Source: Psammoneis japonica
Lineage: Eukaryota
Length of the DNA: 64,000 bases
Assembly (NCBI GenBank): GCA_008632985.1
Contig: QPGO01000301.1
Coordinates: 1 to 64,000, forward strand
Direction of reading: 5' to 3'
The position numbers were made by a program, and so were the translations under genes. The notes below the pieces were generated by a model that searched no databases, had not been told where the DNA came from, and saw nothing but the letters and a program-made list of their open reading frames with translations. Below, in pieces: positions 5,599 through 36,498 of the stretch (the stretch's first letter is position 1; each line of letters begins with the position of its first letter).

Positions 5599-6537
5599 TC
5601 AACAAGGAGTGTCATTTTTATTGTCCCCGTTTGTCGAACTTTTCTTGTCGGAAAAGGAATGCCATTTCTTCACCATGAGGTCCAACGGCTTCATGAGAGT
5701 GGTATAAATCGATGGATCATCTTCAATCGCAGACACTATCCATGCAATACATTCTGCTGTGGACAAGTGATTGGCACTCGGCGGAGTCCGGATATCGAAT
5801 CGACGGGGTTGAAACTCCCTGTTAAGTAGTTGATGTGTCATTTGATTCACGCCAGAAGCCGACGCCTTCTGTTGCTTTTCTGTTTTGTCAAGCTCCTCGT
5901 CTTTGCAGTCGTCGTCATTTGCTTGTGGTTGGATTGAAACTCGAATCATGTGCATTGGGTATTGTTTTGCGGCAATATTTGCTTGTTCCATTTCACGCGC
6001 ATACTTCCATGTTGCATCCAGAACAAGGACTGTAATCTTGCTGTCTTGCGTATCCTTGCTACTAGTAGTAGCCTGTGCGCTCATTGAGCGTCGCCGTCGT
6101 GTCGTTTCCAAAGCGTCTTGCAAGGGTATGGCATCACTGCTAGGAAACATCAAGAGAAGATCTCGTTCGGGATCTTGAATTTGTTTCATAATGTTTGAAT
6201 CCACCTTGTCGCCTAGTCTTCGAGCAACGACAGTATGCAACTGCTTGGGTTCTGCACACGAATCGCCATCACCTCGCTTCTCTGCTTGATTCAAACACAG
6301 TTCGACCAGGGGCAAACTACGATTCTTTCGTCGGGCTTCATGGGGGTGTTGCAAGACAATTACCTGGCACTTCTTCAACACGATTGGTGACGATGGCAGA
6401 GCCTCACAAACACATGCGCGTTCTTGAGGTCGGTGGCATGTTTCGCAAATCTGTCGATTTGCCTTTTTCTTGGGAGGAGACGGTGTTTTTGCGCTTGGCT
6501 CGTAAATGCCATCGCTTGCTGCATCAGAGGACGACAT
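5599..6537 (-). CDS. DTW-domain tRNA-uridine aminocarboxypropyltransferase (DTWD2/TapT-like)
   Basis: CxxC...CxC knuckle (CETCHRPQERACVC), LQHPHE, VLDATW, LSTAEC. Confidence 0.88.
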   Translation of the reverse strand: MSSSDAASDGIYEPSAKTPSPPKKKANRQICETCHRPQERACVCEALPSSPIVLKKCQVIVLQHPHEARRKNRSLPLVELCLNQAEKRGDGDSCAEPKQLHTVVARRLGDKVDSNIMKQIQDPERDLLLMFPSSDAIPLQDALETTRRRRSMSAQATTSSKDTQDSKITVLVLDATWKYAREMEQANIAAKQYPMHMIRVSIQPQANDDDCKDEELDKTEKQQKASASGVNQMTHQLLNREFQPRRFDIRTPPSANHLSTAECIAWIVSAIEDDPSIYTTLMKPLDLMVKKWHSFSDKKSSTNGDNKNDTPC

Positions 6538-7724: not shown

Positions 7725-8355
7725 GCCAGTTGATTGCAGCTCAAACCATGTGTTTTGGGTGCTGGTTTGTGGCTTGTTTGCTTGCTCCATTCCATGGGCA
7801 TGCTTCCATGTTGCACCCACCCAGAGCAGGGGCTGCAATCTTGTGATCTTGTTTCTTGTTTGTCCTTGCTGCTGGCAGCCTTTGCACACAACGAGCATCT
7901 TTGTTGTGTCATGTCCAATGCTTCCTCCAAGGGAATGGCATCATTGCTTGGAAACACTCATGAAAATGTCTTGTGCAGGATCTTGAATTTGTTTCATCAT
8001 GTTTGAATCCACCTTGTCACCTGATCTTTGAGTGGTGACAGCGCGGCTGCTTGTGCTCTGCACTCAAATTTCTGTCACCCTGCTCTTGCAATTGTCTCAA
8101 ATGCAGTTTGACCAAAGGCAAGCTGCAACTCTTTTGCCAGGCTTCATGGGGGGGCATTGCAAGACAGTTGCCATGGTGCCTGTTGTGAGCACAATTGGTT
8201 GTGATGGCAGAGCTTTGCCACAAACACATGCACACTCTTGCAGTCAGTGGCATCATGTGTCACAAATCAGTCACTTTGCCTTTTTTTGGCAAAGACAATG
8301 TTTTTGTGCATGGCTTGTGAGTTTCATTGCTTGCTGCATTGGACAATGGCATCTC
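7725..8355 (-). pseudogene. Degenerate partial duplicate of the DTW gene
   Basis: Aligns by eye to ~5925-6540 (tcttgaatttgtttcat-atgtttgaatccaccttgtc; ATWKYAREMEQAN>ATWKHAHGMEQAN; MFPSSDAIPL>MFPSNDAIPL); frameshifted. Confidence 0.88.
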
Positions 8356-8559
8356 TGAACAAGCATGAGATGGGGGGTGGGGAGGGGCAGTGCTGAGTGT
8401 GTTGCACTTTGTTTGGTGTTTGGGCATCTTGCACTTTAGATTGTTGGCAACCCTGTGTTTCATGTGACTGCAGGATCCTCTCACAAACATGCTGTGGTCA
8501 CACATGGCACCTGTCCAGACAGAAATTCACTGTCAATGTTAGACATGGCTTTGACCATT

Positions 8560-9050
8560 TTGGCAAGGACAGCTGGTCTTCTGACGCAAGACTTCACAAT
8601 GTCTCTGCTGCTGCCAGAAACTTTGGGTCATGGGTGTGGCCTTGAAAGCTTTTTTTGTCCTTCTGCTTGGGGCATTGAGCACAGCTCTCATTGCATCAGC
8701 AAGAATCATGTGCATCTCACACCTGTGCTCTCGGCAGTTTGGAGAGCACACACATCTTGGCAACCTTGAGCAGAGCAATTGGTCAGTTCTTGGTGTTGGC
8801 CTCAAAGTTGGACCTGGTGAGCAAATGTTGTTCTTTGTGGCCTTGGAGCACCTTTCCCAGAGCAAGGCATGAGCCTCAATGAGGTCATTCTCACAGGTCT
8901 GAGTCCTCTTGATGTGAACAATGTCACACTCTGTCTTGAGCTCAACATCAGCAAACTGCTTGTTCTCAGCTGTGGCAGTCATTTCCATTGTCATGAGCCT
9001 TCTCTTGATGTGGTTGACAATCAATGGAACAGCAATCTAACAATCAGATG
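8560..9050 (-). mobile_element. Degenerate gag remnant of an LTR retrotransposon
   Basis: EAHALLWERCSKATKNNI...NCREHRCEMHMILADAMRAVLN resembles diatom Copia gag (AYALLWExCxKAMQNKI...NYQExRYEM) once Y>H/C is allowed; recalled similarity, not searched. Confidence 0.55.
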
Positions 9051-10712
9051 CTTGGCAGAGCCAACACATGCTGGCAGGCACAATTCTTGATGCCCTTCCT
9101 CTTGGCAGTGGCAGACTTGCCACTCTTGCTTTCCTCTTCCAACAAAGGATCCTTTTCCTTGGCTTGTGCTTCCATTTCTCTGTCTTCTTCTTCTTCCACT
9201 CATGATGGATTGATGAGACAGGAAAAACACCTCACCAAAATCTGTGAGGCGACTCTCATTTGCTCTGTTTTGTGGACTTCTCACAGCTTCAAGCTGGACC
9301 TGTGTCTTTCATCTGTTGAAATCTCCTCCCCCTTCTGTGGCCATTCCAAAACCACTTTCAGTCCTCTGAGGCTGATCCTGGGGGGGGGGGGGGGATGGAC
9401 AAGATTCAAACAAGATCAATGGCTGTTTCCAAGCATCAGATCACGTGCCTTGTGGGTGATGTTGCAACACGAGCATGTTTTTCCTTCTTCCACATCACAC
9501 TGTCTCTCTTGGGTGGCTGAGCTTTTGGCCCAACGATCAATGAGCAAGCAAGCAGAGACTGTGAGCGATGGCAAAAACACCTTGAACCTGTCACACTGTG
9601 CCAGGTGCAGCATCCAGGCAGATCCCAACTTGAACCCTTGTGATGCACCTTGGTCCAAAGATCTTGAAGAATGGCCCAAACTGTCAGATTTGAAGGCTTC
9701 TTGTGTGTGGCATGACAATCGCTTCCGCAGTTGATTGCCATGAGAGGAAACAAGTCCAAGGCCACATGGGCAAGAGCGGCAAGCCAGCAATCACAAGCTG
9801 CTGAAGCATGCTGCCATTTAATTGCAACATTTGTGACTTGGGGAACCACTGGATGAGTGGCAGCGTTGTTTGCAGGAGGGTTGTCAGGGAAGGGAGAACC
9901 AGCGGGCATGCCACAATCCAGTTGCTTTTTGATGGGCTTGACAAAAAGGCAACCAAGATCAATGAGACCGGCAGCAACAGTGATGCTGGGGCCCAGAACT
10001 TGAGGATTCAACATCTAAAAGTCCATGGTCAGAAAGAAGAGAGTTTGAACAGGAAGCAAAATTGAAGAAGCATTGCAAGAGACATTGCAATTTGTGACAT
10101 CTGTGCATCATGGATGAATGACGGAACCACACTGCCATCACAATGCTGTCTTCCATGATGCACGATGTGAAAGAACAAGAAATGGTCGACACCCATCACA
10201 TCTGCCCTTTGCCGTCAAAATGGATGCAATGCTCCAACATGTGCGCAACAAGCTCACATTGTGGGGGCTGTTTTGATGAGTCCATGTGTGCACCACTGAT
10301 GGAAGACATTGGGCACCTCTCTGCCAGATGACACCACATCACAATCTTTGCTCGAACAGATTTTCAATCTAAAGCCAACCAAGTGGCAGGTAAAATCTTA
10401 CAAAAATGTCCTGGACCTGACAATCCAAATTTAGTTGGGGACAAGCGGATGTGCAGGAAAATGGCTGGCTTGGCCAATCTAACCCTGACTGGCACTCTAA
10501 CTGGAGGCAGTCACTTGCACCACCACCGCCATTGTCAAGAGAGTGCTGCAATGTCCCCAGATTGCTGTGGGACTGCACAGACTGGGAGCCAACACAAGTG
10601 CAATTTGCAACAACAAGAGAGCATTAAATTTGGTGTGGCATTGTTTCCTGATGGTTGAGTCATCACTTGGCACTTTGTGCTTGGTTGTCTTCAACAATGG
10701 CGACAACAACAC

Positions 10713-11090
10713 TCAGAAACTGGTGCACTCCCACCACCACTTGCTGACCTTGACATGTTTGCATCCATCGGTGGCACAAGGTTGGTCATTTGGGACATCA
10801 CCAAACATGCCATCAGTGGCCGCATCAACGATGGTTTGAGCAGTGTCATCACCAACAGCATCGCACATGCATGGGTTGAACTTGGTGTCTTGCGTGCAAT
10901 CCCATTCTGGACTCATGCCATCAAAGGGATGAGGTCCACAAGGGAAATCATCAAAATCCTCCCCAGTGGGGACCAATGTCCCATCCGCCACTGTGTTGGC
11001 ACAAGGAATTCTGTGCTGGCCCCGGACCAATGCCAAAGGAAGAAGTGCAGCCACAAGTGCAAAGAGAAGAGAGTTCTTGATCATTGTCAT
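10713..11090 (-). pseudogene. Remnant of a secreted-protein-like gene
   Basis: Signal-peptide-like MIKNSLLFALVAALLPLALVRG followed by a Tyr-free acidic/Cys-rich segment inside the mutated domain. Confidence 0.4.
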
Positions 11091-14000
11091 CATTGTCAAC
11101 AACAAATGAATGGCAAAAGAGAATGTAACCAACAATGCCAAGAGGCACTAAAGTGTGTCTTGTGAAGACACAGCATTGTCAGCAGAATGAGGGGCTTGCC
11201 GGTCAATGATCTGTTTTGACACTGGCCACACGTCAGCAATCCACATCAGCACTGTGCACCACAGACCTGCTGCACAGCAGATGCATCACTGCACACACGC
11301 ACAGCAGCATCACTTCCTGACATTCTTTTTGTCCATGACGTGTCATGGTGCAGATGCCGGCTTCTTTGCATGTGCCCATCTACAGCAGCTGCTTGTGCAG
11401 TGCCAGCAGCAGCAGCTGGCCAGAGCAGCAGCAGCAGATGGAGGGCCCCACCAGCACACACCTCGTGTGGTGCAGCACTGTGCATGGCATGCTGCACCTG
11501 CAAATTCTTCATCATTTGAGACATGGATTTTTGGGTCTTGAGGAGCTCACAACATTTGTCTTTTTCTTGGCCAATGTTCCATTGGATGGAATGAAGATGA
11601 CCTGTGCATTGAACATCTGCCACATTGTTTGCTGTGCAGTGTGTCTCATGACACAAACTTGCTCAACAGAAGAACAATCTCAAACCTGTCTCAAACAAAC
11701 ACAAAAATTCTGATGTCATCACTTCCAGGAATATCGTGCATGATGTTGTGATGGTTTTGACAGATGTTGTTCTCATGGCAACAGCCCAGAGACATCTGAG
11801 CACAGAGTTTTGGGAACAAGCCATGTCAGGATTTTTGCAAGAGCACTCTGAAGTTTGAAGCTCCCCACAACTCTTTTTTGCCAGCTCACTGCAACAAGCT
11901 CAGCCATCTTCATCATGTCTCAAGAGCTCACAACCAGTGCTCAGCTGGCTGCTCAAGGAACATGAGAACATGCACTTTTTCAAAACAGCATGATGCTCAA
12001 TTGCCCGCCAGTGGGGGCAAGTGGGGCAAGGTTGCCAAAAACCACCATGCTGGTGGCTTTGATGGCCATGCTCCTGTTCACGCTGTTGAGTCAATTGCAA
12101 GCATTTTCAGCTCCATCACAAGAAAGTCAGGATGGTGTCAAGTTTTCAAAATGGTGGGTTGAGCACACAACCAGCCAAAGGGCAGACATTGGCAATGGTG
12201 CGGAAAGGTTTGACCTTGTTTGTGGGCAAAAACCCAGCAAGTTGGATGATGTTTGTGGTGTGCTCAGCATGGGTCTGCCTGCAAACAAGCCAGCCTCTCC
12301 AGCTGAAGACAACAATTTTCTTCCTCAGCCAGACAAGGAAGGAAGATTTGGCTCCTGAGTTTGAAATGCCACCCCTTCCCAGTGAGGGCCATGTCATGGG
12401 TGCTCAAGCTCCTGCACCACCCCCTCAAGAAAAACCAAGAAGACCATGTGCCACTGGGCATCTGGCAAATCTTGCCAACACAGCTCCACATGCCAATGCA
12501 TGCAAGAGAGTGGTGCTGGCATGCCCAGCGGCATTGGCTCAGGGCATGGCATTTGCTCTTTTGGAGGTGTCTGTGGGGCAACCTTCTTCACAGCAGCACC
12601 CCTCAAGGCAGTGGCTTGGCACATCATGGTGCCAATTCCTTCAACTTGTGCACCCACCTCCTCTCATGTCCTTCTGCATTGTCAGGTGATTGCAGGTGTG
12701 CTGCAGCAAGTCCGGTGAGTGAGATGTCCAAACTTTTCCAGAAGCATCAGATGCATGTGGAGAAAGAGCATGGATGTCACAAGGAGGAGTGTTGCAAACA
12801 TGGTCAGATGACCAACATGTTGACTGGAGCAATTGCTGGTGCTCTTGTGACATGCATGCACTCCTCCTCTTGCTCTCATGATGATGATGAGCAAAAGCCA
12901 ACAAGTGTGTGTCATTGGGGCTGGGACTCAATTGTTGCAGTTTCATTTCAACAGTTTGCCACTGCCATTGTGTCAGCATCAGTTCACCAGGCAGTTTCAA
13001 CAGCAACTGTTGTGACCAACTGTCATGAGAGCTGTCTTGCTGCATTGTTTTGCATTGTTGTGCTGGCACAGCACAGTTTTCACAGCAAACCACACAAAAG
13101 ACTGTCATGGTCATGATGACAAGAAGTTGAAAAGTCATGCAGAGCAGAACCATCAGATGAATTGTGGTCCTGCACTCTCCCTGTTCTTTGCAGACAATCT
13201 TTTCTGTAATTTGTTGGTTGCTGCCTTGAATGGCCTGTGCATGCCCCGCTCAGAAAGCTGCCACACAGGTGTGGCATCTCAGCCAATGAGAAGGTCTTTG
13301 GCATTCATGGCATCTTGTTGAGATGATGTGATGAAGTGCTTTTTGTTGCTCAAATTTAAAGCAGAGTCCACCACTGCCTTTGCACCTGTTTCCGTGCACA
13401 CTTGCTCACACTTGTGGCAAATGAGGCCATTGTCAGCTTGCGCTGAGTCATGCCACACACTCCAGGGGATTGATGTGCTCTGCAAGTGAGAATCTTCCCT
13501 TTTGCACCAAAAAGAAAAACATGCTGTTCAAACAATGACCATGCATCCATCTGTCATTGAAAATTGTGCTCTGCATTCTGCCATCCTTGGAGGCTTCCAT
13601 GGGTGACTTGAGGCCATCAACCATCAGCCCAGACACCTTTGGTTTTCAGGAATGGGGCACTTTGGCTCTGTTGTGGTGATGCACCTCAACACCCTTGCTG
13701 CCAGTGAACTCTCTGCCTTTGTGTCAGGACAACCTTGCAAAGCAAAAAGAAGCACCATCATCCAAACTGTGAAAAGTCACACAAAACTGTGTTGCAGTGC
13801 TGGTCATTGTGCGAAGACCAAGAAACAGCCCCTTTTGTCCAACACCAAGCATCCAACAATGTGTCAATGGAATGTGACCTTTTGGGCAGTTCTTTGACAA
13901 ACCTTGCAGCAGTGCATGGTGTGTGCATGTCATGCAATGGTTGGAATGCATCCAATGGAGCCTCAAAGGCATCATGATGATCACGTCCTGCTGCTGCAGC

Positions 14001-16664
14001 AATGAGAGCTTGGTCATTGTTAAATTCATGCAAGTGCTGAAAGGTGGACGAACTCAGGCCCTGAAGACATGGGTGTGTGGGACATGCTTGTCTGTGCCTG
14101 CATCAACCCTCCATGGACAACATGCTCCTGAGTGAAACGCTGTTGTCCTGGTTTCTCACATGCTCCCCCATGATGAAAAAGGGTTGAGATCATTTGCAGG
14201 GTCAAGCATCGTTCATGCTGGCAACAACAATGGCACATGAGTGATTTTTGTGCCACACACCATGCAATTTTTCAGATGTCTGAGTGAAAACAAAGATTCG
14301 CTCTAAAGGTTTGTGTGCTCTGAAAAAGATTTAGATTGGTGGCCCAGGTGGGCAGCTAAAAATCTGTCAAAAACACACAAATCTGTGCATTTGTGCATTT
14401 GTTTTTCAGAGCAGCCCAGTGCTGCACATGCATGGCCCTGTCACAACAGGCCCTGCTTGTCAACTGCCAGGTCATTGTGACAATGAGCCAAGAGGAAACA
14501 TTCAGGACAATGCAATGGATGGACCAGGTCAGTGGCAAAGTTCGGGTTGTTTGGCTGGTGGCTGGTGGTGTCCATTGTGTTGTGAACATGGAGCCTGTCC
14601 ATGACACACTGTGTTGTTTTGATTGCAGTTGTTGCATGCCAAGCACAACTGTGCTCCAAATGTGGTGGTTTGCTTTGTGTCAGTTGTTTGTTCTGCCTTG
14701 TTGTTGTTGTTGTCTGCAAAGCAAAATGCAGCAGCGGCAGCATCATGTCAGTCATCAGAAGGAAATGTCAGGGAAGCACCATGTGGTGGTTCTTGTTTTT
14801 GCTTGGCACTGACTGCACTGACTGCACTGCTGCTGTTGCTGCTGTCATCATGGCTGTGGTGCAGTGGGTCATTCTTCTTGTCATGACAATGTGCGTGCAT
14901 CATTGTCTCCAAACCAACAACATTGGAGTGCATGACATCGCAACATCTGCACACATGACAAAAATGTGTTGCTGCATTATAAAATCTACTTGTCCACACA
15001 TGACGGTTTTTGTCATTTAGTTGATCATCAATCTCCTGCTGTTCTTCATGTTTGAACACAGATGTTTTTTAATTTTTGTGCTCTGCCTTTTTCACAACAA
15101 CCAACGATCTTCAACGACAAGCCAAACATTGCAGTTGCATGCAATGGCATTTTCATCATGTGAAGTGTGCACCAATTGTTCAATCAACAACTGTGCTCCA
15201 ATTTGCCTGGTCGTCCGCATCGTCCTCTTCATTCCACATGTCTTGTCCGCTCTCTTGCAAGAATTTCAAATGTGCCGCTGCCGCGTTGGATGTTTCCTTG
15301 TCACCGTTCCAAAAAAGCCACACTGCATTTCTTGCATTTGGGTGAACATCATCGAGAGGAAGAGGTCCCTCGAAATGCAGAATCGCATCACTGCTCCCCT
15401 CTTGACGCCGTGTCATCTGCTTCTTTTTCTCTTTCTTCATTTTGCCCGTCCCATTTTTCTCTTCCTTCTTCGTCTTGGGCGCCGCCTGTTTTCACCGTCT
15501 CCGGCGTCTTTCCATCCGAATCCTTCTTTTTCATCGATCCCGTTGCCGTCACCTTCATTGTGTGTCACTTTGTTTTGGATCCATGTTTCTGACTTCTCTC
15601 CATGCTGTCTCCATTTCCGAGTGTTTCTTTGTGATTGTTCGCATGCGTCACTTGAAGGCACCCACATGTTCTTCACGCACCTTAACGCGCATGCAGAAAT
15701 CCATGTTGTTTTCCAGCACGTGCACCCTTTCTCCTGATGCATGTTTGCACAACATTTTCTTCCATCAATTCTACACTCCGCATTGCCCTTTCCCGGTGCA
15801 ATCTCACGCAGGATTTCTCTGGGAGAAGTTGCATGTGCGTCTGGCAGGTTTTTGTGTTTGAAACTCCACATCCCACCAGGTGCGCATGTGACTTCTCCCA
15901 CGCACCACTCTGGCACATTTCTGTAGAAACCAGAATTTTGTGACTGACGCACGACCAATCTGGTGAATGCAATGGCGGACCCACGACCACAACAATCAGA
16001 GCATTGGAAGAAAACCATGTCAGATGAACTCTTTCTGTCCACTGATGAGGATTTCCATTGCCGGATGATGGAGACAGTTGATGGTTTTGTTCACGCTGAC
16101 GCTGCTCGTTGTTCGGAGGAACAGAGAGCAAAGGATGCAAAGGCTGCTGTGTCAAGATCGGCAGAAGCAATGGCAGAAGCCCGTTGTGCCGTTGTGGCTG
16201 CAACGACCACACTTGAGAGTGCTTTGTCAAATCAAGCAACAACCACTCGCAAATTTAAGCACATCCATGCGCAGTGCATCAAGTCATCAATCCAGACACA
16301 CTGTTCAGACAATGACTGTGTTGTTGCAGTGGAAAATTGCAGCGAAGCGGAAATGAGTTTCCAACACTTTCTTCACGGCAATGCATTTGACGCAAAAGAG
16401 CTGGGGCTCCCAATCTCCATTGCAGGACATCAAAAATCAGAATGCAGGCTAAACATGCTGCACAGCTGTGACTCGACCTTGCTTCTGAGAAGCCTCAGGG
16501 CAAATTCTGACACAGATGCCACAAGAGCAGCAGAGAGGGAGTTTTCTGCGATTGACAGCATCAACAAATCCATCCACCACCGTGCCGTGCCACTCCTTCG
16601 AAGGCGACATCTAACACATCTGCAGTGCGTCCTGAAGGACACAATCACGTTGCTCCACGAGGCC

Positions 16665-16942
16665 TGACAGGATTTGAACAGGATTTGGGTGCGCGCGAAA
16701 TGTCGCGCGCTGTTTAGTTTTCCGCGTGCAGTTTTGTGTGCTCTTTAGTTCCGCGCGCACGCGCGCGATGTAGTTTGCTTTCGAGCCACACGGCTCACAA
16801 GAATGATGACAGCAGCCCGATTGCACCGACTTGCACATCTTTTGGCTCCTGTGACGGTCTCTGAGCGGAGACTCATCTGCCATTTAGACAGCAGCAAGGA
16901 GTTGTTGTTTGAATTCTTGCCATTTGCCTTCAATTTCTGTCA
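16665..16942 (+). repeat. 5' LTR (278 bp)
   Basis: Direct repeat of 19580-19857; inverted termini TGACAG/CTGTCA. Confidence 0.92.
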
Positions 16943-17894
16943 GATTGACAGTCTTGCTCATTGTCAACCCATTGAGCAACCGTCATTGTCGTCGTTGATT
17001 TGCCGACGACGCTGTTTCAATTCTGCGTGGACCTCCGCATGTGTTCTGCGTACATCGGCAAGTCTGCGTGCATTCAATGCCAGGCATCGGCAGGAATTTA
17101 ACGTCACCGTCAAGTCTCCTCACCGCTGGACATCTGGATTGATTGTGCCACTTCTTGTCGCTGAAGACACACATTCAACGGTTGCATCCAAGTCCATCCT
17201 TGATCCTCATCCCTTGACACACCCGTTCAACGGTTAACGGTCAAGAACCCTGCATGTTCAAGGATCTTTGTTGCTGAAGACATGCACACATGTGTCTTCA
17301 CGGCCAAGGACTTGAACCCACTCTTTGGACTGCGGCTTTGCTGCCACTCTACAAGCACACCGAGTCCATTGCACCTGAACTGCCCCGGACTGCTGGTGCT
17401 CCACAGTTCCACTGGGTCCACGAGGACGACTGTGAGAGCAAGCAGCCGTGATTGCAGCCTGCGTTGGGGCGAGGGTGTTTTTCCCGCGTTTGTTCGTTCG
17501 TCCACAGCGCCTGACGCCTGCGTCAACTGGCCAGCCTGATCAGGAAATCCAACCAACATAAAATGAGAACGGTTCGGGGGTCTTGTTCACCTCTGGTTGG
17601 CTTGCCTGCAGGGGTTTACAACCCGCTGCTCCGCTCGCAAGCAACCCAAAGCGCCGCTGGCTGCGGGTTCGGACGTGCCGGCACAACTCTACGGACCGGA
17701 CAGGAAGTTTGGCACTCAACAACGAACAGGACAACACAACCCAGCGACTTCTGATTTTAAGACAATTCAAGATTTCAAGTCAAGTCTGTTTCAAGTCAAG
17801 TCTTTTCCAAGCCAAGTTGCGAGTCAAAACTCCGAGTCAAGACCGCACTCTAGATTGGTTCCTGTCTTTTGTTTCTGCTGCACCATCCTCCGTC

Positions 17895-19436
17895 ATGGTT
17901 CTCACGCGACAGCAACAAACCGAAAGCTTCAAATGCATTCTAGGCACTGTGCTCAATCAAGACGATGACAGCCCTCTTCGTTCTGCCCTGTCCATCAATG
18001 GGATTGAATCATGTGAGGAATTGTTCACGTTCTCACCCACCCAAATTGACGCCCTCACTTGCAGAGACGGCACCAATGTAGTTCCTTTGCCACGGACCCA
18101 CAGAAACCTCCTGGCAGCTTTGATCAGCTTCTACTTTGTCAAAGTTTGCAACAGTGATGATGTGACCAATGAACCCCAGTTGCTCACACCCGACGAATTT
18201 TGCAACTACCGCCTTGGTCCGGACTGCTTGACCTCTCCAGCCACTGGCGCAGCACCCTCCGCACCTGTGCCGAGTCCCTTGCCATCCAAACCAGGTGAAC
18301 CCAGCGCCATTTTGACACCAGCCTTGCACTGTGCCGCCACTCAGGTGCCCCCAAGAAGTGGTGTCAGTCGCGCCCCGCATGTCTTGACCAACCCGCCTGC
18401 AAGCAAACTCGGCCCAGTGCAGGATTGCAGCCCTTGCGCAGGCCCGCACTTCGAAACCAGTTGGGGCACTCCACCCATGGCTTCCAAAGCCGCAGCCTTT
18501 GCACCCCGCAAACCACGTGCTGCCGACCTCCACGTGTTGACCGCTGTCACCCTTCACGACCTTCATTTGGGAAGTGATGGAGATGACAACTTGCTTCTCG
18601 TATCTCCTGATGGGGAGCCTCCTTTTCCCATCATTGAATCTGTTCACAACAGTTCAACCGGTTCATCAGATGGGGAGTTCAGGACACCCAAGCAGCTTCG
18701 TTGTTTTTGGATCCTCCAAGCATCGCACCACGAGACGAGGCCTCCTGATTGGATGCCCCAAGTCTCGCACCTTGAGACTGGGCCTCCTGACTGGAAGCCT
18801 CAAGTCTCGTGCCTCGAGACCAGGCCTCCGGATTGGATGCCTCAAGTCTCATGCCTTGAGATCAGGCCTCCTGACTGGATGTCTCAAGTCTCGTGCCTCG
18901 AGACTGGGCCTCCTGGTTGGATGCCTCAAGTCTCGTACCTCAAGACCAGGCCTCCTGACTGGATGCCCCAAGTCTCGTACCTCGAGACCAGGCCTCCGGA
19001 TTGGATCCCTCAAGTCTCGCACCTTGAGACTGGGCCTCCTGACTGGATGCCTCAAGTCTCGTACCTCGAGACCAGGCCTCCGGACTGGATGCCCCAAGTC
19101 TCGTGCCTTGCCTCCAGTTGCCCCAAGTCTCGCACCTCGAGACCAGGCCTCCAGATTGGATGCCTCAAGTCTCGTGCCTCGAGACTGGGCCTCCTGGTTG
19201 GATGCCTCAAGTCTCGTGCCTCGAGACTGGGCCTCCTGACTGGATGCCCCAAGTCTCGTACCTCGAGACCAGGCCTCCGGACTGGATGCCCCAAGTCTCG
19301 TGCCTTGCCTCCAGTTGCCCCAAGTCTCGCACCTCGAGACCAGGCCTCCAGATTGGATGCCTCAAGTCTCGTGCCTCGAGACTGGGCCTCCTGGTTGGAT
19401 GCCTCAAGTGTCACACCTCGAGACTGGGCCTCCTGA
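17895..19436 (+). CDS. gag-like N-terminus, Pro-rich linker and 14-aa repeat ORF
   Basis: MVLTRQQQTESFKCILGTVLNQDDDSPLRSALSINGIES... resembles diatom Copia gag N-termini (recalled); runs into ETRPPDWMPQVSxL repeats. Confidence 0.5.
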   Translation: MVLTRQQQTESFKCILGTVLNQDDDSPLRSALSINGIESCEELFTFSPTQIDALTCRDGTNVVPLPRTHRNLLAALISFYFVKVCNSDDVTNEPQLLTPDEFCNYRLGPDCLTSPATGAAPSAPVPSPLPSKPGEPSAILTPALHCAATQVPPRSGVSRAPHVLTNPPASKLGPVQDCSPCAGPHFETSWGTPPMASKAAAFAPRKPRAADLHVLTAVTLHDLHLGSDGDDNLLLVSPDGEPPFPIIESVHNSSTGSSDGEFRTPKQLRCFWILQASHHETRPPDWMPQVSHLETGPPDWKPQVSCLETRPPDWMPQVSCLEIRPPDWMSQVSCLETGPPGWMPQVSYLKTRPPDWMPQVSYLETRPPDWIPQVSHLETGPPDWMPQVSYLETRPPDWMPQVSCLASSCPKSRTSRPGLQIGCLKSRASRLGLLVGCLKSRASRLGLLTGCPKSRTSRPGLRTGCPKSRALPPVAPSLAPRDQASRLDASSLVPRDWASWLDASSVTPRDWAS

Positions 19437-19545
19437 CTGGATGCCCCAAGTCTTGCATCTCGAGACCAGGCCTCCGGATTGGATGCCTCAAGTCTCGTGC
19501 CTTGAGACTGGGCCTCCTGACTGGATGCCTCAAGTCTCGTGCCTC
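18732..19545 (+). repeat. 42-bp tandem array, 20 units (2 shortened)
   Basis: Unit gagac(ca/tg)ggcctcctgactggatgcctcaagtctcg(ta/tg/ca)cctc. Confidence 0.95.
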
Positions 19546-19579
19546 GATGTTTCTGTGACTCCTCAAGCAAACTGGGGAG

Positions 19580-19857
19580 TGACAGGATTTGATCAGGATT
19601 CAGGTGCGCGCGAAATGTCGCGTGCTGTTTAGTTTGCCGCGCACAGTTTTGTGTGCTCTTTGGTTCTGCGCACACGCGCGCGATGTGGTTTGCTTTCGAG
19701 CCACACGGCTCACAAGAACAACAACAGTGGCCCGATTGTGCCAACTTGCACGTCTTTCGGCTCCTGCAACGGTCTCTGAGCGGAGACTCATCTGCTGTTT
19801 AGACAGCAGCAAGGAGTTGTTGTTTGAATTCTTGCCATTTGCCTTCAATTTCTGTCA
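19580..19857 (+). repeat. 3' LTR (278 bp)
   Basis: Direct repeat of 16665-16942, followed by TSD AGGCC. Confidence 0.92.
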
Positions 19858-20482
19858 AGGCCCTCGACGATTTGACAAGGAAAGACATTGCCTTGCAGTG
19901 ACAGTGGCAAGCTTTGTATGATCTGAGGCCAGGCACAGATCAAATGCGGGGAGGGACATGGACCACGATCCGGGCTGTGGACAAAGAAGCTGTGGCAAGA
20001 GAAAGGGTCCTGCAGTTGGCATTGCAAGTCAAGGCACAATTGGTGGCTGTCAACCAGCCTGACCACAGCACCGACTTTCAGCAGGTGATTGTGGCTGCCA
20101 GGGAACATTTCATGGCACAGGATGACCAAATGGACCGTGCAAGTGGACACTGCATAGAATCCATGAGGAAGCAATTTCTCCAAAACTGCACACATCTGAC
20201 TTTGCCAATTCTGAAAGGATCAAATTCATCATGTTTGCAAGAAAGAGTGAGGAAATCACTGTGAGTGAATGACAGATTGACACACGCATCCTGTTTTAGA
20301 AACAAATCTGACCAGCACTTCCTTCTGTCCTGTGCAGCCCAAACAAACAGGGCCTTTTCTTGCACTTCTGCTGCTCCTGGACATTCTTCATAAACCAAAG
20401 CATTGTCCCCAATTGCTTCGACAGGGACAGTGCATAACTCAGGTGAGTGCTGAGTCTTCTCAGGCATTGAAAGCCAGTTGTT

Positions 20483-23400
20483 TCATTTGTGATCAAGCTG
20501 CCAGCAACCAACCAAGTCTGCATGCTGATGCCGTTGCCTCACAGTTCTCTGGTCAGCTTGACAAGCAGTTGGATGGACCACTGCAAAAATCGATCCTGTG
20601 TCTTCCTGCACGAAAAAACACAGCAAATGGGAGGGAAACTGTTGATCGCCCTTTTGTGTGCCAAAGGTCACACAGGCAAAGTCATGCCATGGTCCTTTGC
20701 TTTTGCAATTGGGGTGCGCACGGCACGCATCCCTCCCATTTGCATTGCAAAACTCTGTCTTGCAAGTCAGGTGTGTGTTTTCACTGTCTTCACCAACACA
20801 ATCCTCCCACTTTTCCGACATGAAGTTCAGCAACACAGGATGAACTTGGCAACGAGCGTGCAAGCTGTTCCACACAAACGTCACAGCGCTGATCCCTTGG
20901 TTGCAGGTGAGAGTGGACACACTTCCTCCCAGCATGTGATTGTCCGTCCTGACTCTTGATGATTCCTTTTTCCCATTTGGCAAAATCCAGCCATTGGCTG
21001 AAATTGCGGCGTTGAGCCTCATTTGGTCCTCCACACATGACACGACCTGCTTCAGAAAACTGTTGAGGTTGCATTGTTGTGTGGCAGATGACGGCAGTTT
21101 GAAAAAGTCTTTCAAGAGACATTCCCCCAAGCCTGCGTCAAAGTTCATCGCATGTCGGCAACAACAAAGAAACACTGGGAGATGGAGTGTTTCATGAAGC
21201 TTTTGAAGCTTCCACCCGCACCCTTCTGTTCGCGGGACAAATTGCACCACCCGGTCAATGAGGAGACGGATTTTCTTGTTCATTTTCTGAACAGATGAAC
21301 TGGGAGTTACGCTTGTGATGGGTGGATCGCCTGGCCTGTGCCATGCGTGGAAGACAAGAAGGTCCTCGAGCAATTAAATGAATTGCCGGACGCTGCAGTC
21401 AAGTCTTTTTCCCTTGTGTCCTCAGCCTCACTCTCCTCTTTCTCATCCTCATTTTCGTCCCAGTCACCCTCTTCGGACTCCTCCGACCTTTCATCGTCAG
21501 AGTCGTCCAAGCACTCACCAGGTTGGCAGCAACTCTGAAAGTTTGCTTTGGGTGTCTTGCGATTCTCTGGAACAATGGGTTCGTCTGCGTCCTCGTCAAG
21601 GAAGCATGACTCACATGCGTTTCGTCCCTCGCTGGCCAACAGGAGAAGGTAGAAAACAAAAGCCATTCCAGCCCAGCAGTGAGAGTTGAGGAAGGCAAGC
21701 GATGTTGCTCCTCCTTTGAAGTTTGTTCGCAAAAAGGATGCTTTGTAAGTTGACCGGTGATTGCTGAAAATCCTTTCCACTGTGCTGTCCACCTCACTTG
21801 CGACCACAGGTGTCATGCTGTCTACAAATGAATTGATTGCCCTTTTCAAGGTGCCGTTTTCAAAGAGATGCATCATGTCGCTTGCTGTCGCAAGGGCAAT
21901 GCCCCATGGTTGTGCGCCAAAGTCTGCCTCAAAAAGACAGTTGGCAGGTGCGTTGTGTTGCTTGAGGCAATGCAAGATGCCCAACCAGTGCTTCCTTTCT
22001 TGGTCTGATCTGTTGTTGTTGTTGGCCTTGGTTTGCACTTGGTGGAGATCCAGTCCTCGGATGAACTCGCATTCAATCCATGGGTCGTCCAGTTTGTTGA
22101 AGCCAGTGAGGCAAAAACAACAGCAACGTTGACGACAGTTGTGACCTCCGTGTCGTCCGACAAGACAGTCGCCGCTTTTTGCGTCTCCTATGATCAGAAC
22201 GATCAGCGGGATTGCATGGAGGTGTTGCATCTCATCCCCTCGTTGCACGCATGTTTTCATGCCTCCTTTTCTCATGACTTCCAAAAGTGGCTCCAAAATG
22301 ACACGCAAGCAAGTGTGGCAGTCTCTTGACGAGCGTCCCTTCTCCGCCTTGCGATTGTTTGAGAGATTCTTTGCCGCAGATGACGACATCTTTTCCAAAT
22401 CCGGGAGACAACCAATTGGTTTCCAGACACTCTTGTCCGACCATTTGTTGAAGGCAACATGCGCAGAGGTCATGATCACTGGTTCTCCGCAATGTGATCC
22501 CATCCCTTGTGTCCTGCCAGTCTTGTCGAGGTGAATGACATTGCACTCAAGAAATTGTTTCTCCGGGTCAGTTGTCCGTTCTTCGTGACTGCGCCTGCAC
22601 CACTCACCCGCCAAAAGGCACTTGTCATCCGGTCCCTTTGCTTTGCACTTCCCAAAAGAACAGTCTGGATTGGCCATGTTCTCTCTGCTGCACCGCAGGT
22701 GAGGATCGAGCAAAAACTGTTCCCAAACCTTTGTGAAATCCCATCTTGGCACTGACACTCGTTTTGGCAAACCGGTTTTGAAATTTTTGGTTTCTAGAGT
22801 GACAGGAATGGACTCGCTGGGTGGAAGAGGGAAATGCTCAGTTAAGGTGCGCATCAACTCTTTTCTCCTTGGCAGAACTGCACCAAGCTCAATGTTGCTG
22901 TTGCCAGTGTGCCTCTCAATGAAATCAACAATGCAGTCACACAATTCCAGGGGAGCACCACGTGTGTCCATGAGCTTCTTGCACAACTCTGTGCAAGCTC
23001 CATCAAGATTTGTCAAAGAGGGAGCAGAAGCCAAGGCCTCTTCTGCAGGAGCATCATGCCTGATCCCCAAACGTTGATCCTCATCATCAATGTCCTCTTC
23101 CTCCTCCATTGTCACGTCCAACACTGCAGCAAAGGATTGACCACCGCCAACATCCAAATCGTTCATTGCCAAAAGTTCAACTCCTTGCATGCTGTGGTTT
23201 GATGAAATGGAGGACATGTCGTCCATTCCGTGCGGCGCGTCATCCAGGGAGGGGAACAAGGGGCTGCTGCTTGGATCACTCGTTGAAGATCTTGGGAATC
23301 TGCTGTGAGTGGATCGCCTTGGATGGGATTTGTCATCATCAGAGGACAAAGAGGAAGAACCACCGCTTTCTTTGGGTGGCCCCTCCATTGTGGCAGGAGT

Positions 23401-23487
23401 GTCACTTTGATCTGGGATCAGATCTTGGGTTTGCAACTCTTGGGCAACTGAGTGACACGTTGGTGAGTGTCTCCAATGGCAGGCCAT
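20483..23487 (-). mobile_element. Plavaka-like transposase, frameshifted near 21.37 kb and hypermutated
   Basis: IHLDKT...GEPV...WKPIGCLP...CHTCLRVILEPL...LIIGDAKSGD...SDMMHLFENG...WKLQKLHETLH...NFDAGLGE...CRAHPNCKSKGPWHDFACV follows the Plavaka motif order, with Y>C/H. Confidence 0.72.
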
Positions 23488-25294: not shown

Positions 25295-26124
25295 CCCAAC
25301 CGATGAAATGCTTTTCTCGTTTAAAATGATGTTTACGAAAATTGACAAACCAAGGATTGTGCGGCAATGCAATCACGCATTGGCATGTGGCAACAAGGTG
25401 GAGGCAGACACAGTGATGTGGACACAGTGAAAAATGGCACACATGATTCTCAACAAGTTGTTGCAATGTTGGCACAGCAAACTTGCAACCAGAGGTTGGC
25501 CTTTCATTGCACAACAACAATTTTTTGCAACATTTTGACAAATTGTCATCATGCAAATCTACACATTTTTAACATTTCGTGCACTCTGATGAACAAGCCT
25601 TGCCAAGCAGCAGCAACACTGATGTTCACGACCATGTCCTTTTGGCACCTTGCAGCAACAACAAGATTTAGAACACCCCAACAAAAAGAGCAAACAAGAC
25701 ACCTCACAAGATGCCAGTCCTTGGCATTTTTGGGATGATCAAGAAGATGATCAACCCACCCAACTAGATTGTGCTGCTTGTGATGTCCTGTCAGCAGAAG
25801 GCTGTGGTGTGACATGATGTGGCAAATCAATGCCGTTTTCATCAACGACACTCAAGATGCCAGACAAGACATGATGAAACAAGTTCAAGAGGTGTGCCAT
25901 TTCTGTCAAATGTGGATGTGCATGTGCCCAACATTTGGACATGGCAAACATTGCACAACAAAGTCAAATGTTCAAGTGGGAAAAAAGAGAAAGCAGCAAC
26001 CAGCAGTGACCAGCCAAGCCAGTTTCCTCTAAGGCGGATGCATGACTGAATGAAGCATGGCTGGCTTGGAACAAGGATTGCTGCATGTGCCATCATGGTG
26101 AATGATGAATTTGTGGCAGGCCAT

Positions 26125-26155
26125 CATGTGTGTGTGCATGCATGTGTGTGTGTGT

Positions 26156-26188
<33 letters not shown>
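26125..26188. repeat. TG/CA mosaic microsatellite followed by a G33 run
   Basis: catgtgtgtgtgcatgcatgtgtgtgtgtgt then 33 G. Confidence 0.85.
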
Positions 26189-26191
<3 letters not shown>

Positions 26192-27511
26192 CAGCTGGCA
26201 CAGGAAATCTCTTTCAACAATCCAATGCCATGCAAATGCGTCATGTCATGGCACTTGTCTTGGCCTGTCTGGGAGTTAAATTGACAACACTTGACCTGAC
26301 CAATGTGCTGCCATGCAGGATTGGTTGCCATGAGATTGGCCAAGATGCAGGGCAGTGCCAGTGCAGAAACTGACTTGATGGTTTGGGGCATGAGACATGC
26401 TGAACACAGCCAATGCCTAAAGGATTTGTTCTTGCAACAGGCACTGCTGCAAAGCACCAATGGCAAAGCACCCATTGTCTGGATGTGTGGACCCAAATCA
26501 GACTGGAGCTTCTTGTTGCAAATGACGACACAAGTTGTGGTGGTGGATGCTGTCCCATTGTGATTGCAGCTTGCAACATTTGAGGTGTGTTGACATGCTC
26601 CTGATGAACATCATGCCTGCTGTTGGATCAACCACATGGATGTCCCCATTTCCAACATGTGCTTTCCCAATGTCACACAGGCAAAGCACAGCATCGCACC
26701 AGTTTGAGTGGAAACCAGGTTGGCACCAATGTCAGCAAATGGGGCAACTGCCTCCCCACATCTTGCTCAGTGCCTCACAGGCCAAGATGCTCTGCAAGTC
26801 TTCATGAATGGAGCCATGGTTGGGCTGCCCTTGGGTCCCTGTGATTGGCACATGACAGAATGCCACCAAATCATCCAAGCCAAGTTGGTGACTTTTTGTT
26901 GGAGCCCACCACCATGGATGGTGCACCAAATGGCAAGGCATGCTTCCTGCATGGGTCTGCACTCTGGCATTGCAGGGAAATGAAAAAGTGCGTGCAGCTG
27001 GCATGCCAAAGCATTGCCAACCTTGTCAAGCCAGTGGTGGGTGTGGCAACATTCCCGCCAATGCTGAGTCCTCCCTGAAAAGGACACGTGCACATGGAAG
27101 GACACAACATGCATGTGATGCTTGCTTTGACAATCCAGGCTGAGGGTTGCCCAACACCTGACATTGTCAGCATCATGTCAGGACAAAGACACCTCACATC
27201 ATCAGAGGGCAATGTTGATGATGAAGAGGATGCTCTTATCAAGGACATGCCACTGGCACTTTCACAGATCCACTTCTTGTTGCTCTTCTTTTTGTCCTGG
27301 CACTCCCCATGTTTTGACATGGAGAGGAGTTGCAATTGCTTGGCAATGTCTTTGAACCACTTGCCAAGGCTGGCCTTGTTGGCAACATCATTGTGGGTTC
27401 AAGATTTTGCCAGTGTGAGCTGGACTTTTCAGCAGAGTCCAAGGCAATGCATGGTTTGCCCTTGCCAATGACAGCACTGGAAGTGACAATGCTGCACAGT
27501 GAAGCAAGAGT

Positions 27512-28441: not shown

Positions 28442-29801
28442 AAAAGCAGTGCATTCGCCATGGACACGTTGGCCAAAGTAGCCTCCCAGCAGCATCCCGT
28501 TGGTGGCAGTTCTCCTCAAGCCAATGATGACTCTTCCAGCACCTTGAAGGTTTCCTTTTGCATCCAGCGTTGCGTCGAGGCACTCGCGGAACATTGCCCA
28601 CCGCAGGGCAAAGCCAAAACTTGGTGCACTGTGCCTCTCCAAGATGCAGTTGATCCTCTTGAGTGCCCTCAAGGTCTTGTAGATTTTAGCATCTTGACCA
28701 CAGAAGATTGTGGAACAAAGAAGACGAGCCCTCTCTTTCATGTTCTTCATCACAAGAATGGCTTGGATGGGTTCAACAGTGCCAAAACACGGAACATGTT
28801 CCGCAACACTGTTGTCGATTGGTTTTGTGAAAAATTTTACTCCGAGAATCGACCGCAACTAAACCAGTGCATCAAGGACAAGAACCAGCACCTCTTGATG
28901 TTGGTTGTGGTGCCATCAGGAATGTCGATGAGGGACGCCGTGAAGGACAAGCAAAACATTGCTGCTGTTTTGATGCACCATGTCAAGACAAACATTGGCC
29001 TGCTTGTTGATTGCGTCCATGTGACAGAGTCTCTGGTTGTGTCAGTTGGGACGGGCGATGAGAGTCAATCGATCGCACCGTCAAGTCGAGGTGCATGTCC
29101 TTTTTTGATTGGACTTGCCCAAGCCATTTGCTGTGGTGTTGTCAAGAAGATGGGTGCACATCTTCATTGTCAGAAGACTTTGAAGTCTCATCACATGGGA
29201 GTGATGGGTTTTGAGGACATCACGGACACCATGAGTGATCGTTCCGATCTGGCGGACATCCGCAAGCACTGGGGCTGGGATGATCTCATGATGAATGATC
29301 AAGGCAACACTGTTGCCCTGTGTGCAAAGGAGAGGATTACTCCAATGAGCTCTGCAATTGTTTTGGCCTTTCCTCGTTCCAGCGCCAAGCATCAGAATGT
29401 TGCAACAGAGATCCGCAAGGATGAAGACTGTTGGGAGGAACCGCTTGTTGAAGGAGGATGCATTGCTGATCATTCGTGCATTGCCAAGCGCCGATTCCAC
29501 TTGGCATCTTTGGTCAACATTCAAAACCTAGAAACGTGCGATGATGAAAAGTCGACCAAAGATTTAAAGACGCATGCGTGGCTGCCTTTTGGCAAGGTCG
29601 TGTTTCAAAGTTGGCAACGAATTAAGTCTCCAAAGGGGGTGAAGAACAATTTTGAAATGTTGGCTTTGAAGGGGTTGGACGTCAAGTTCAAATGTGAAAC
29701 AAGATGTCCTGTTCTATCTGCAAAACAGCACTGGGGTTCAATCTGCAACCATTGCTCTGTTCGAAACAAAATCGCTCAGAGGAAGCAGGTGGACGAAAAG
29801 C

Positions 29802-29985
29802 TGAATAAATGCTGCCATGACAGCTGAGAATTGGGTGCAAGACAAGACAGAGTGTTGAACAGCATCAACAGGTTCTAGAATTGTGAGATGTTGCGCTGCT
29901 GGGGCCACTGAATGAGCGACAGTGGACCAATTGCCAACAGTGCATAAACTGCCTACATCTGTGACAGTGCATCAGCATTTGTTCA
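29802..29985 (-). repeat. Copia 3' LTR
   Basis: Direct repeat of 36315-36498. Confidence 0.95.
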
Positions 29986-30136
29986 GTCCCCTCGAACTGA
30001 CACTGGCTCCGCTCGGGTCAAATCGACAGACAAATGCAACCTGATGCTGCCCTGTTCCAGGGCAGCAGTCATGTTTTGGGGGTGGGAAAAGCTGCACCTA
30101 CGCGGCAAACCCGTTTGGTTTGTCCCCTTTTGGGAC

Positions 30137-33100: not shown

Positions 33101-34248
33101 TGCGCCAACGTCATGCACAAATGACATGACGGCATCCGGGTGGTCCTGTCTCCTCTTCCAAGGACAGAACCTGTCATGCCCTCTTCTGTTGGTAAATGCG
33201 CTTCCTCCCATCTCGCCATGTGTCGATTTGACCTTTGAAAACATCTGGTCGGAGTAGAATCATCCCTTGACAGCAGGGAACTTAAGCCAAGGGGCTTTCT
33301 TCCAGACTTTCTGTTCGGATGGTGTGCAGACATTACGGACCCCTGCCTGGGTCGTCACTCTGAGGGCATTCTCAGCGGCTGTCAGGCCAATGTGCCACCT
33401 TTTAGAGAGTGTCTTGGGCATGATGGTCGATGCACGACTCGAGGTCGACAGTGCATGCACCCGTTTCCGCTCGGCACAATCCGGGTGGACATCTGGGTCA
33501 CACCGGTCGTGTAGCCCGTCTCCCTCAGTGTCTTTGTGGGAGACATTTGCCTGAGCAACCAGGCGGTGATACAAAGAATCGTCGTCATTGGCATCCATGA
33601 TGACATTCTCGTCATGATGGGATGTTTGGCATGAATGAATGGAAGCGACACACCTGGTCGCATTCATCATCGTCGACCATCCGTCCGACTTTGCTGATCC
33701 TTGGCGCACACTGGCACATGCACGCGCTTCCTCCTTTTGCGCCAGGGCATCAGCAGAAGGCTCCCATCTCAGGGGTGATGCAAGTTCCAGCCGGGGGGAG
33801 GTTCTCCAGATCCTCCTTTGTTGGCTTGTGTGAATCAAAGACTGGGGCAACACCTCGCATTCGCAATGGCACCCTGATCTTTGAGTCAGGAAAAGAAATG
33901 GAGTGCGTGCCAGTCGGATCAAACTGGCGAGGGGCATCGTGGACAATCAGCCCATTCGCTCGCAGTTGGTTGGGGCATGGGAGGGTGTCAGTCATCTTGT
34001 CCCCGAAAAAACACAGCCTCGTGGACCAGCAGCAGGTGTGGTTGTCCATCAGTTGGATCAACCCACACAGTGGCAGCCGTGCAAATGGGAACATTCTCCA
34101 TTGGTGCATGCTCTTCGGAGCAGGGGTGTACCACGACAGTTCTGTCGATGTCAGAGTGCATCACAAAATTGGACCCAACAGCACACGTGTCAGCGTGCGA
34201 GTCCAAATCAGTGGTGGCTTCATCATCTGAATTCCCAGCAGATGACAA
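30137..34248 (-). pseudogene. pol: Copia pol: protease, integrase, RT, RNase H
   Basis: DLDSHADT; SKRWHIG; LVSDGAPE...PWQNPAEASI; RKARFVAGGH, ADVQNACL, RALCGLKSSG, LVYVDD; FVDADHAG, ESSTFGSEF, FCDNEAV, NLADALTK; several frameshifts/stops. Confidence 0.95.
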
Positions 34249-34347
34249 AGAGATGTGTGTGTCCTTTGAGAATCGCCCAGAGAAACAAACAGTGCCAGCA
34301 GGTTTAGCAACATTTGGTTCTGTGCCTTTTGGTGCTGGCGCAACTGT

Positions 34348-35811: not shown

Positions 35812-36314
35812 TTGTGTGAGTGGAGGAAAGTGAGAAAAATGTGTGGTTCTCGTGCCGATTTGGCGGTTTCTACTTAGCGAACCCGCGAGCAGGCGGTGTT
35901 ACCCCCAAGCAACAATGTCCAACAGACATGCATCCACATGTGCAGTGTCCAAACAATTTGACAACGTATTTTGATTTATGAAATGCATGTGATCAAATGA
36001 CAGACCTCAATGCACAAATCATTGTGTCACACACATCACGCATGTTTACATGCCTTAGCCAACATGTTCCATCCACGAGATCAAACATTCCGTCCACTGA
36101 CGTCATGTTTAACGGATCACAGCTCTGGTCTCCAAGAGCATGTCGTTCACATCCATCAACATTGACACACATAAAGGACTCAGCGATTGCGCGAGCAACC
36201 ATGGGACCAACATGGCGCTCACCGCAAAAATCGATCGATCGCAACGACACCGTCGCACCGTTCGCGATGCCTGTTCCAGGCGATGAACATCATGGCGTGT
36301 TGGCTCTGATAAAG

Positions 36315-36498
36315 TGAATAAATGCTACCATGATAGCTGAGAATTGGGTGTGAGACAAGACAGAGTGTTGAACAGCATCAACGGGTTCCAGAATTGTGAG
36401 ATGTCACGCCACTGGGGCCACTAAACAAGCGACAGTGGACCAATCGCCAACAGTGCATAAACTGCCTACATCCGTGACAGCACATCAGCATTTGTTCA
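36315..36498 (-). repeat. Copia 5' LTR
   Basis: Direct repeat of 29802-29985. Confidence 0.95.

Follow-up and report, generated by a model that had tools for sequence, protein, structure and literature searches.

Paired TG/CA differences between the long terminal repeats of a Psammoneis japonica retrotransposon point to rapid loss of TA dinucleotides

We analyzed a 64,000-nt stretch of DNA from Psammoneis japonica (GenBank assembly GCA_008632985.1, contig QPGO01000301.1, positions 1 to 64,000; hereafter the window) and focused on an element at 16665-19857 whose two 278-nt long terminal repeats (LTRs) differ mostly by adjacent pairs of transitions, where TG on one side faces CA on the other. 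For most of these TG/CA swaps, the best-supported explanation is an ancestral TA that became TG in one repeat and CA in its partner. We consider it likely that a single insertion lay in a transposon-rich block hypermutated by the host, where fast loss of TpA and slower loss of CpG made the differences between its LTRs. The element represents a genuine single insertion: the same five bases, AGGCC, abut both of its ends as a target-site duplication (16660-16664 on the left, 19858-19862 on the right), its 5′ LTR (16665-16942) and 3′ LTR (19580-19857) are direct repeats with TGACAG...CTGTCA ends, and contigs of other copies diverge from the window exactly before 16665 and behind 16942, giving the family common LTR limits. 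All of these features lie on the forward strand.

The two LTRs align without gaps and show 26 differences in 278 nt (91% identity), 24 of them transitions and two transversions (A/T at 16678 and T/G at 16721); in a purine/pyrimidine alphabet they are 99.3% identical. Sixteen of the 24 transitions pair up as eight adjacent TG/CA swaps (in left-LTR numbering, used throughout: 16686-7, 16727-8, 16804-5, 16807-8, 16813-4, 16824-5, 16852-3 and 16881-2), six of which cluster in 16804-16882, with 16686-7 and 16727-8 outside. The other transitions comprise six single changes at CG, where one LTR has CG and the other TG or CA (16708, 16752, 16757, 16828, 16837 and 16843), and two single changes at TA, with TA on the left and TG on the right (16747 and 16772). 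All 24 stay within this system of four dinucleotides. Both LTRs retain CG at 17 shared sites and TA at two, each of these two TAs lying in TTTAG. In 200,000 simulations that scattered 24 transitions randomly over the left LTR, swaps averaged 0.34 and never exceeded four, compared to the eight observed. Since the transitions all belong to the four-dinucleotide system and only two transversions accompany them, ordinary divergence amounts to less than 1%. The TA-type and CG-type changes postdate the insertion. An earlier note on this DNA had quoted strings from both LTRs, each of which is indeed present at its place; the seven swaps that it listed are all real, the one at 16727-8 having escaped it, and the two sites where it saw TA on the left only are the two TA singles.

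The pair cannot by itself tell what stood at the swaps. Single-rate models fitted to its own kept and single sites predict 0.26 swaps from CG and 0.25 from TA, compared to the eight seen, and we therefore rejected the idea of settling the choice between TA and CG from the pair alone. The argument that CG runs survive in both LTRs, and hence that the swaps do not come from CG, likewise requires every CG to decay at the same rate. As rates derived from the pair explain neither origin, outside evidence is required, and the TA reading works only with a high rate of TA loss established elsewhere.

Such a rate is available from a dead copia element on the reverse strand at 29795-36498, 10 kb from the LTR element and of the same composition. 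We aligned the 40 best of 76 long homologues to the window and retained 368 conserved columns, defined by at least 80% agreement among at least 15 homologues. Conserved Tyr was kept in only 1 of 17 columns, 11 now reading TGY and five CAY. At conserved Arg, 14 CGN and seven AGR codons were kept and six were changed to CAN or TGN, giving a loss of 6/20 for CGN. In contrast, true CA/TG codons were almost all intact (His 9/9, Gln 5/5, Cys 2/2, Trp 12/13; 28 of 29 columns). Among the 47 changed columns, 29 were of TA type, eight of CG type and ten of other types, as assigned by reading the printed contexts. These counts yield a loss of 0.94 for TA and 0.30 for CG, and mean that true CA/TG codons almost never flip; the loss of CG in the LTR pair is about 15% per LTR. 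With a TA loss of 0.94, the eight swaps correspond to 18-21 TAs at insertion and to 2.0-2.3 expected TA singles, compared to the two observed; about 8-11 same-direction TA events would be hidden from view.

Two further observations concern the copia element itself. It carries two in-frame stops, at the codons starting at 30847 and 30793, both TGA where homologues carry Arg. Its own LTR pair (about 29797-29985 and 36311-36498) shows 17 differences, all transitions, which include five TG/CA swaps, four TA singles and three CG singles.

The interior of the LTR element shows both directions of TA resolution next to retained CG. An array of 20 units, mostly of 42 nt (18759-19560), encodes a 14-residue repeat inside the element's open reading frame (ORF). 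At unit position 10-11, ten units read TG, six CA, four TA and none CG; the TA site has thus been resolved in 16 of 20 units, and in both directions. CG was kept at positions 8-9 and 15-16 in 14/17 and 12/17 full units, respectively (26/34 together), and position 21-22 reads TG in eight units and CA in nine. In the ORF, the conserved Tyr56 is now Cys (TGC), while conserved CGN Arg codons were kept in three of three cases. For codon 14 (17934-17936), 66 of 75 distant relatives have His, 61% of family depth has TAC and this copy has TGC, a series that may reflect a CA-to-TG flip through a TA intermediate.

A strand asymmetry is apparent in the raw counts. Within 17002-17935, the sense strand of the element differs from the family majority by six TA-to-TG and three TA-to-CA changes; pooled with the copia element (11 Cys, five His), the totals are 17 and eight, respectively. 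This excess of TG, given as raw counts with no significance test, is possibly a bias toward the non-template strand.

The same signature extends over much of the window and stops at its genes. Over the whole window, the ratio of observed to expected dinucleotides (O/E) is 0.21 for TA, 0.59 for CG and 1.5-1.6 for CA/TG. Gene islands at about 4-7 kb, 48-53 kb and 56-64 kb (P450, CBM96/M64 and kinesin) have TA O/E values of 0.35-0.94 and CG values of about 1. The clusters closest to the P450 are fungal, and those closest to the kinesin are from chordates. Old blocks at 1001-3000, 8001-15000, 26001-27000, 44001-48000 and 54001-55000 are almost devoid of both TA (O/E 0.00-0.14) and CG (0.06-0.26) and have TG/CA values of about 2. 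The 15001-44000 block, which contains the LTR element, the copia element and a Plavaka-like frame, has TA O/E values of 0.04-0.22 and CG values of 0.29-0.84; in the internal region of the LTR element (16943-19579) the values are 0.14 and 0.64, respectively. This younger block is poor in TA and yet retains CG, which shows that TA is lost faster than CG, by a factor of 4-8 when calculated from the O/E values and the copia codon counts. In a 1-kb profile the borders between mutated blocks and gene islands are sharp, and the genes are spared.

A duplicated sequence illustrates this regional restriction. Two stretches of about 600 nt are 73% identical; the one within a gene island (5932-6524) has 17 TA and 35 CG, and the other (7732-8339) has no TA and three CG. 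Relative to the first, the second shows 16 CG-to-CA, 14 CG-to-TG, ten TA-to-TG and two TA-to-CA changes. Since one duplicate is intact and the other, 1.8 kb away, has been stripped, being duplicated is not in itself what draws the process; its target is set by location. The TAs that survive have a marked context preference: among 238 TAs in the hypermutated parts of the window (1001-3000, 7001-48000 and 53001-56000), TTAG/CTAA and TTAA are over-represented 3.3-fold and 3.1-fold, respectively, relative to the gene islands, and ATAT, ATAC and ATAG are found at 0.05-fold, 0.23-fold and 0.45-fold. These contexts suggest that the process prefers a pyrimidine after the A. The TTTAG of the two TAs retained by both LTRs matches the context most over-represented among the survivors, which favors the TA reading.

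The other copies of the family are represented here by 4790 contigs of a public run aligned on the stretch and read as letter shares per site. It should be noted that this run (X1) possibly comes from the same sample as the window assembly, so that sequence proof from it is not independent. The comparison with the family majority comprises 40 listed rows, each with a share of at least 0.58 of family depth. Among the rows listed, the element differs from the majority by nine TA-to-TG/CA and eight CG-to-TG/CA changes. The family shares of the TA rows (0.58-0.94) are below those of most CG rows listed, as is expected if the other copies lose TA as well. At swap 16807-8, A is found at 16808 in 58% of family depth, with no row for 16807 among those listed. 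This suggests that the family letters are TA, or at least a mixture of TG and CA, although the share is the lowest listed and could be a tie at the cut-off.

Several results weigh against a simple TA origin and have to be set beside this evidence. At swap 16727-8, the other copies have CA in 84177 of 84195 depth units (51 contigs), and TA or CG in none; as the right LTR also has CA, the TG of the left LTR arose from CA. The internal region has two further sites of this kind, 17183-4 and 17598-9: CA predominates in the family (85% and 90%, respectively), the window has TG and no contig has TA or CG. Both may be ancient resolutions that took place in separate sublineages, an account that is impossible for the LTR site 16727-8. 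At the six remaining swaps, neither TA nor CG reaches 58% of family depth among the rows listed, so that the ancestor is not seen there; the family is known here from contig letters. The single-rate TA model from the pair alone falls short at 0.25 swaps, the high rate of TA loss having been measured in a different element. Lastly, under a TA origin the ancestral LTR would have had a TA O/E of 0.68-1.01, which exceeds the gene-island value of 0.57. Composition proved a weak discriminator and was set aside, since TA and CG origins both require an ancestral LTR richer than the gene islands. The TA ancestor put forward in the earlier note is therefore, on the loss rates, the best-supported one for most of the eight swaps, the exception being 16727-8, where CA preceded TG. 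The check that the note had suggested, whether other copies carry CG at the swaps, found a CG majority at none of the eight among the rows listed, and pointed to TA at only one. Thus the TA origin is favored by the loss rates rather than by direct sight of the ancestor, and we infer that about 6-7 of the eight swaps had TA at insertion.

The most obvious competitor to TA is CG, with a methylated CG deaminated on opposite strands of the two LTRs. TG/CA swaps by themselves do not distinguish the two, and CpG loss is plainly at work in this DNA, as seen in the six CG singles of the pair, in 14 CG-type differences from the family majority among the rows listed (six in the flank and eight in the element), in the loss of six of 20 conserved CGN Arg codons of the copia element and in the CG depletion of the older parts of the window (O/E 0.06-0.18). 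The 17 CGs kept in both LTRs and the six singles give a loss of only 0.15, however, and hence 0.26 expected swaps. To reach eight, the ancestral LTR would have needed a CG O/E of 1.54-1.74, and its CGs would have had to fall into two groups, of which one is nearly intact and the other about 85% lost. Moreover, no swap site has a CG majority in the other copies among the rows listed, and the array site that carries both TG and CA also carries TA, but never CG. We consider a CG origin of the swaps very unlikely. It is also conceivable that the ancestor was an ordinary TG or CA and that both letters were exchanged in a single LTR, in most cases the right one. Passage through TA or CG in two rapid steps would do this, as would a single event in which an enzyme deaminates the C and the A of 5′-CA on one strand. 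Such a flip is what the family letters indicate at 16727-8, with CA in the family and the right LTR and TG in the left LTR only, and what 17183-4 and 17598-9 resemble, with CA in 85-90% of family depth, TG in the window and no TA or CG contig. At the other swaps, the left-LTR letters would hold at least 42% of family depth, as deduced from there being no row among the 40 listed, whose lowest share is 0.58. An old paralogue pair shows four CA-to-TG changes and one TG-to-CA change, and a preprint cites editing of both A and C in DNA by an ADAT2 (Mettrop et al., bioRxiv 10.64898/2026.01.13.699255). On the other hand, the copia element kept 28 of 29 His, Gln, Cys and Trp columns while losing 16 of 17 Tyr, and the near absence of TA and CG from fully mutated DNA indicates that their creation from CA or TG is far slower than their loss. 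The lack of any transition outside the four-dinucleotide system further means that first steps are rare, and by our own estimate fewer than one two-step flip is expected; one case is therefore acceptable, but eight are not. Direct flips are thus an unlikely source of the swaps as a set.

Two further alternatives question the pair itself. If the element were a recombinant of two diverged copies, its LTRs would never have been identical, and a family this abundant (4790 contigs) could supply the partners. Such an origin is hard to reconcile with the matching 5-bp target duplication at both ends, with 24 transitions of the hypermutation type beside only two transversions, or with the minority CA that both LTRs carry at 16758-9, where 96-97% of family depth is TT; we regard it as highly improbable. 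The swaps could also be an artefact, in which a modified base in TA or CG was misread in a strand-dependent manner and the consensus took one strand for each LTR. Strand-dependent misreading of a palindromic step would yield exactly TG in one copy and CA in the other, and the public run is possibly not independent of the assembly. However, a separate contig build of that run shows this copy's private TG at 16727-8, albeit at low depth, the gene islands in this window have normal TA, and the changes turn Tyr into Cys or His and create stops in a dead element while the neighboring genes are intact. An artefact therefore appears to us extremely improbable.

The likely course of events, a single insertion exposed to fast TpA loss and slower CpG loss, can be sketched as follows. 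The fast process would convert TpA to TpG or CpA, i.e. A to G on one strand or the other, and the slower one would convert CpG to TpG or CpA. TA loss would have come near saturation, at about 0.9 per site per LTR, with most of the TAs present at insertion being resolved in both LTRs. Resolution on opposite strands in the two LTRs would leave a TG/CA swap, while resolution in the same way would leave nothing visible; some eight additional sites of this latter sort would be implied. The swap at 16727-8 was probably a rare two-step change from CA. On analogy, we favor an ADAT2/TadA-like enzyme that would deaminate adenine at 5′-TA on DNA, as proposed for Bigelowiella natans (see below); CpG loss would result from deamination of a putative methylated C. 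To our knowledge, the deaminases that act on A34 of tRNA always see it as U33-A34.

We take the element, 3.2 kb long, for a non-autonomous LTR retrotransposon that belongs to a very abundant family. Its internal region (16943-19579) holds a 624-codon frame that matched no family when compared with Pfam, and no gag-pol with reverse transcriptase (RT) and integrase was found there; lacking these in its interior, the element is filed as a non-autonomous derivative. The purine run GGGGAG (19574-19579), resembling a polypurine tract, adjoins the 3′ LTR; in a contig of another copy (X3), the same CTGGGGAG precedes the LTR start. The ORF, counted from the ATG at 17895 (17895-19436), begins with 120-150 residues that belong to an unnamed protein family: in an exhaustive search, 76 representative proteins matched its N-terminus at E≤1e-3, and the alignments mostly began at residue 1 of both sequences. 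A word-based protein search with the internal ORF returned 1847 candidates, none at E≤0.01. A Pfam scan of 12 longer relatives of the ORF left 11 without a family and gave one a weak match to Tugs, below the cut-off. Non-autonomous LTR retrotransposons include the types known as large retrotransposon derivatives (LARD) and terminal-repeat retrotransposons in miniature (TRIM). The element shares with these its LTRs, target duplication, putative purine tract, absence of RT and integrase and high copy number; unlike them, it has an ORF whose conserved N-terminal domain belongs to an unnamed family and is followed by 20 units of a 14-residue repeat.

Further copies were sought by several routes. 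A search of the window for more LTR or internal-region copies, collapsed to purines and pyrimidines, found none above background. Scans of metagenome and viral contigs with LTR motifs degenerate for purines and pyrimidines gave no matches, and a protein search for translated copies with the open frame of the LTR returned one candidate, none being scored. Contig depth is about 3-fold higher over the last 105 nt of the LTR (16838-16942), immediately ahead of which 12 contigs diverge; another, more abundant repeat family seems to share this end of the LTR. The left flank (16300-16664) is itself a repeat, covered by about 15-22 contigs at a depth of about 6000. Relative to the family majority, it shows six CG-to-TG/CA changes and no TA change among the rows listed.

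Two other open frames lie in the window. The first, of 726 codons (21307-23487, reverse strand), lies in TA-poor DNA; its match to a Plavaka transposase is weak (E 1.5e-05) and falls short of the Pfam cut-off, and it probably represents a further dead transposon. The second, of 923 codons, contains three tandem copies of a 171-nt unit (41929-42560), which differ by nine CG singles and two TG/CA swaps, but also by 11 transversions.

Known processes share parts of this picture. In ascomycetes, repeat-induced point mutation (RIP) changes C to T at CpA, raises TpA and mutates both copies of a duplication. Like the process seen here, RIP is a dinucleotide-specific transition hypermutation that kills transposons and spares genes. 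Its direction is the opposite, however: RIP makes TpA from CpA/TpG, whereas here TpA is destroyed and CpA/TpG are made (TA O/E 0.21, CA/TG 1.5-1.6). RIP also mutates both duplicates, whereas here the copy at 5932-6524 is intact and that at 7732-8339 is stripped. CpG decay is the deamination of 5-methylcytosine in silenced transposons. It resembles the present case in the CG-to-TG/CA singles, seen both within the pair and relative to the family majority, and its hits on opposite strands also give swaps; it cannot account for the change of TA to TG or CA, and in this DNA TA loss outpaces it by a factor of 4-8.

The closest parallel comes from Bigelowiella natans, in which Mettrop et al. measured a TpA-only A:T-to-G:C hypermutation in mutation-accumulation lines, directed at integrated giant-virus and virophage DNA, and proposed a DNA-acting adenine deaminase (bioRxiv 10.64898/2026.01.13.699255). 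The B. natans process likewise turns TpA into TpG or CpA according to strand, affects only foreign or mobile DNA, and leaves clusters poor in TpA and rich in CpA and TpG beside normal genes. Its targets are viral inserts, compared to retrotransposons and other repeat DNA here, and the Rho of 0.45 given for a viral region compares to a far deeper TA depletion here (O/E down to 0.00-0.14 in fully mutated 1-kb windows). Almost only A:T-to-G:C changes are reported for B. natans, while here CpG is lost as well, more slowly and perhaps by a second process. There the process is known from mutation-accumulation lines, and here from the comparison of sequences in a different eukaryote. A full-text literature search found no other description of a TA-erasing hypermutation, and none in diatoms.

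A bolder scheme would merge the two kinds of loss. One ADAT2/TadA-like deaminase hitting both A and C might erase the two self-complementary pyrimidine-purine steps, TpA (fast) and CpG (more slowly), on either strand in silenced domains, saturating new insertions before 1% of ordinary substitution has accumulated. Flips of the 16727-8 type would then be tandem double hits, and the process a domain-targeted mirror image of RIP, regardless of which the family would continue to amplify. We offer this as speculation that is unlikely to hold.

The reading that we prefer, fast TpA loss with slower CpG loss after one insertion, has practical consequences. The naive divergence of the LTRs is 9.4% (26/278), compared to 0.7% (2/278) outside the hypermutation classes. 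If TA in new insertions is rewritten so rapidly, the LTR pair is no longer a clock, and LTR dating would overstate the age of the element about ten-fold. The swaps serve as a read-out of saturation, since they outnumber TA singles only when the loss per copy is near 0.9. The context preference, with TTAG and TTAA surviving and ATAT and ATAC almost gone, is offered for testing candidate deaminases. What is added here is this swap signature of saturation, the contrast in rate between TA and CpG within one element, and one clear exception, at 16727-8. As we read it, position in the genome and not duplication itself directs the process. The finding also carries a kind of genome defence, known for one alga from a single 2026 preprint, over to the transposons of another eukaryote.

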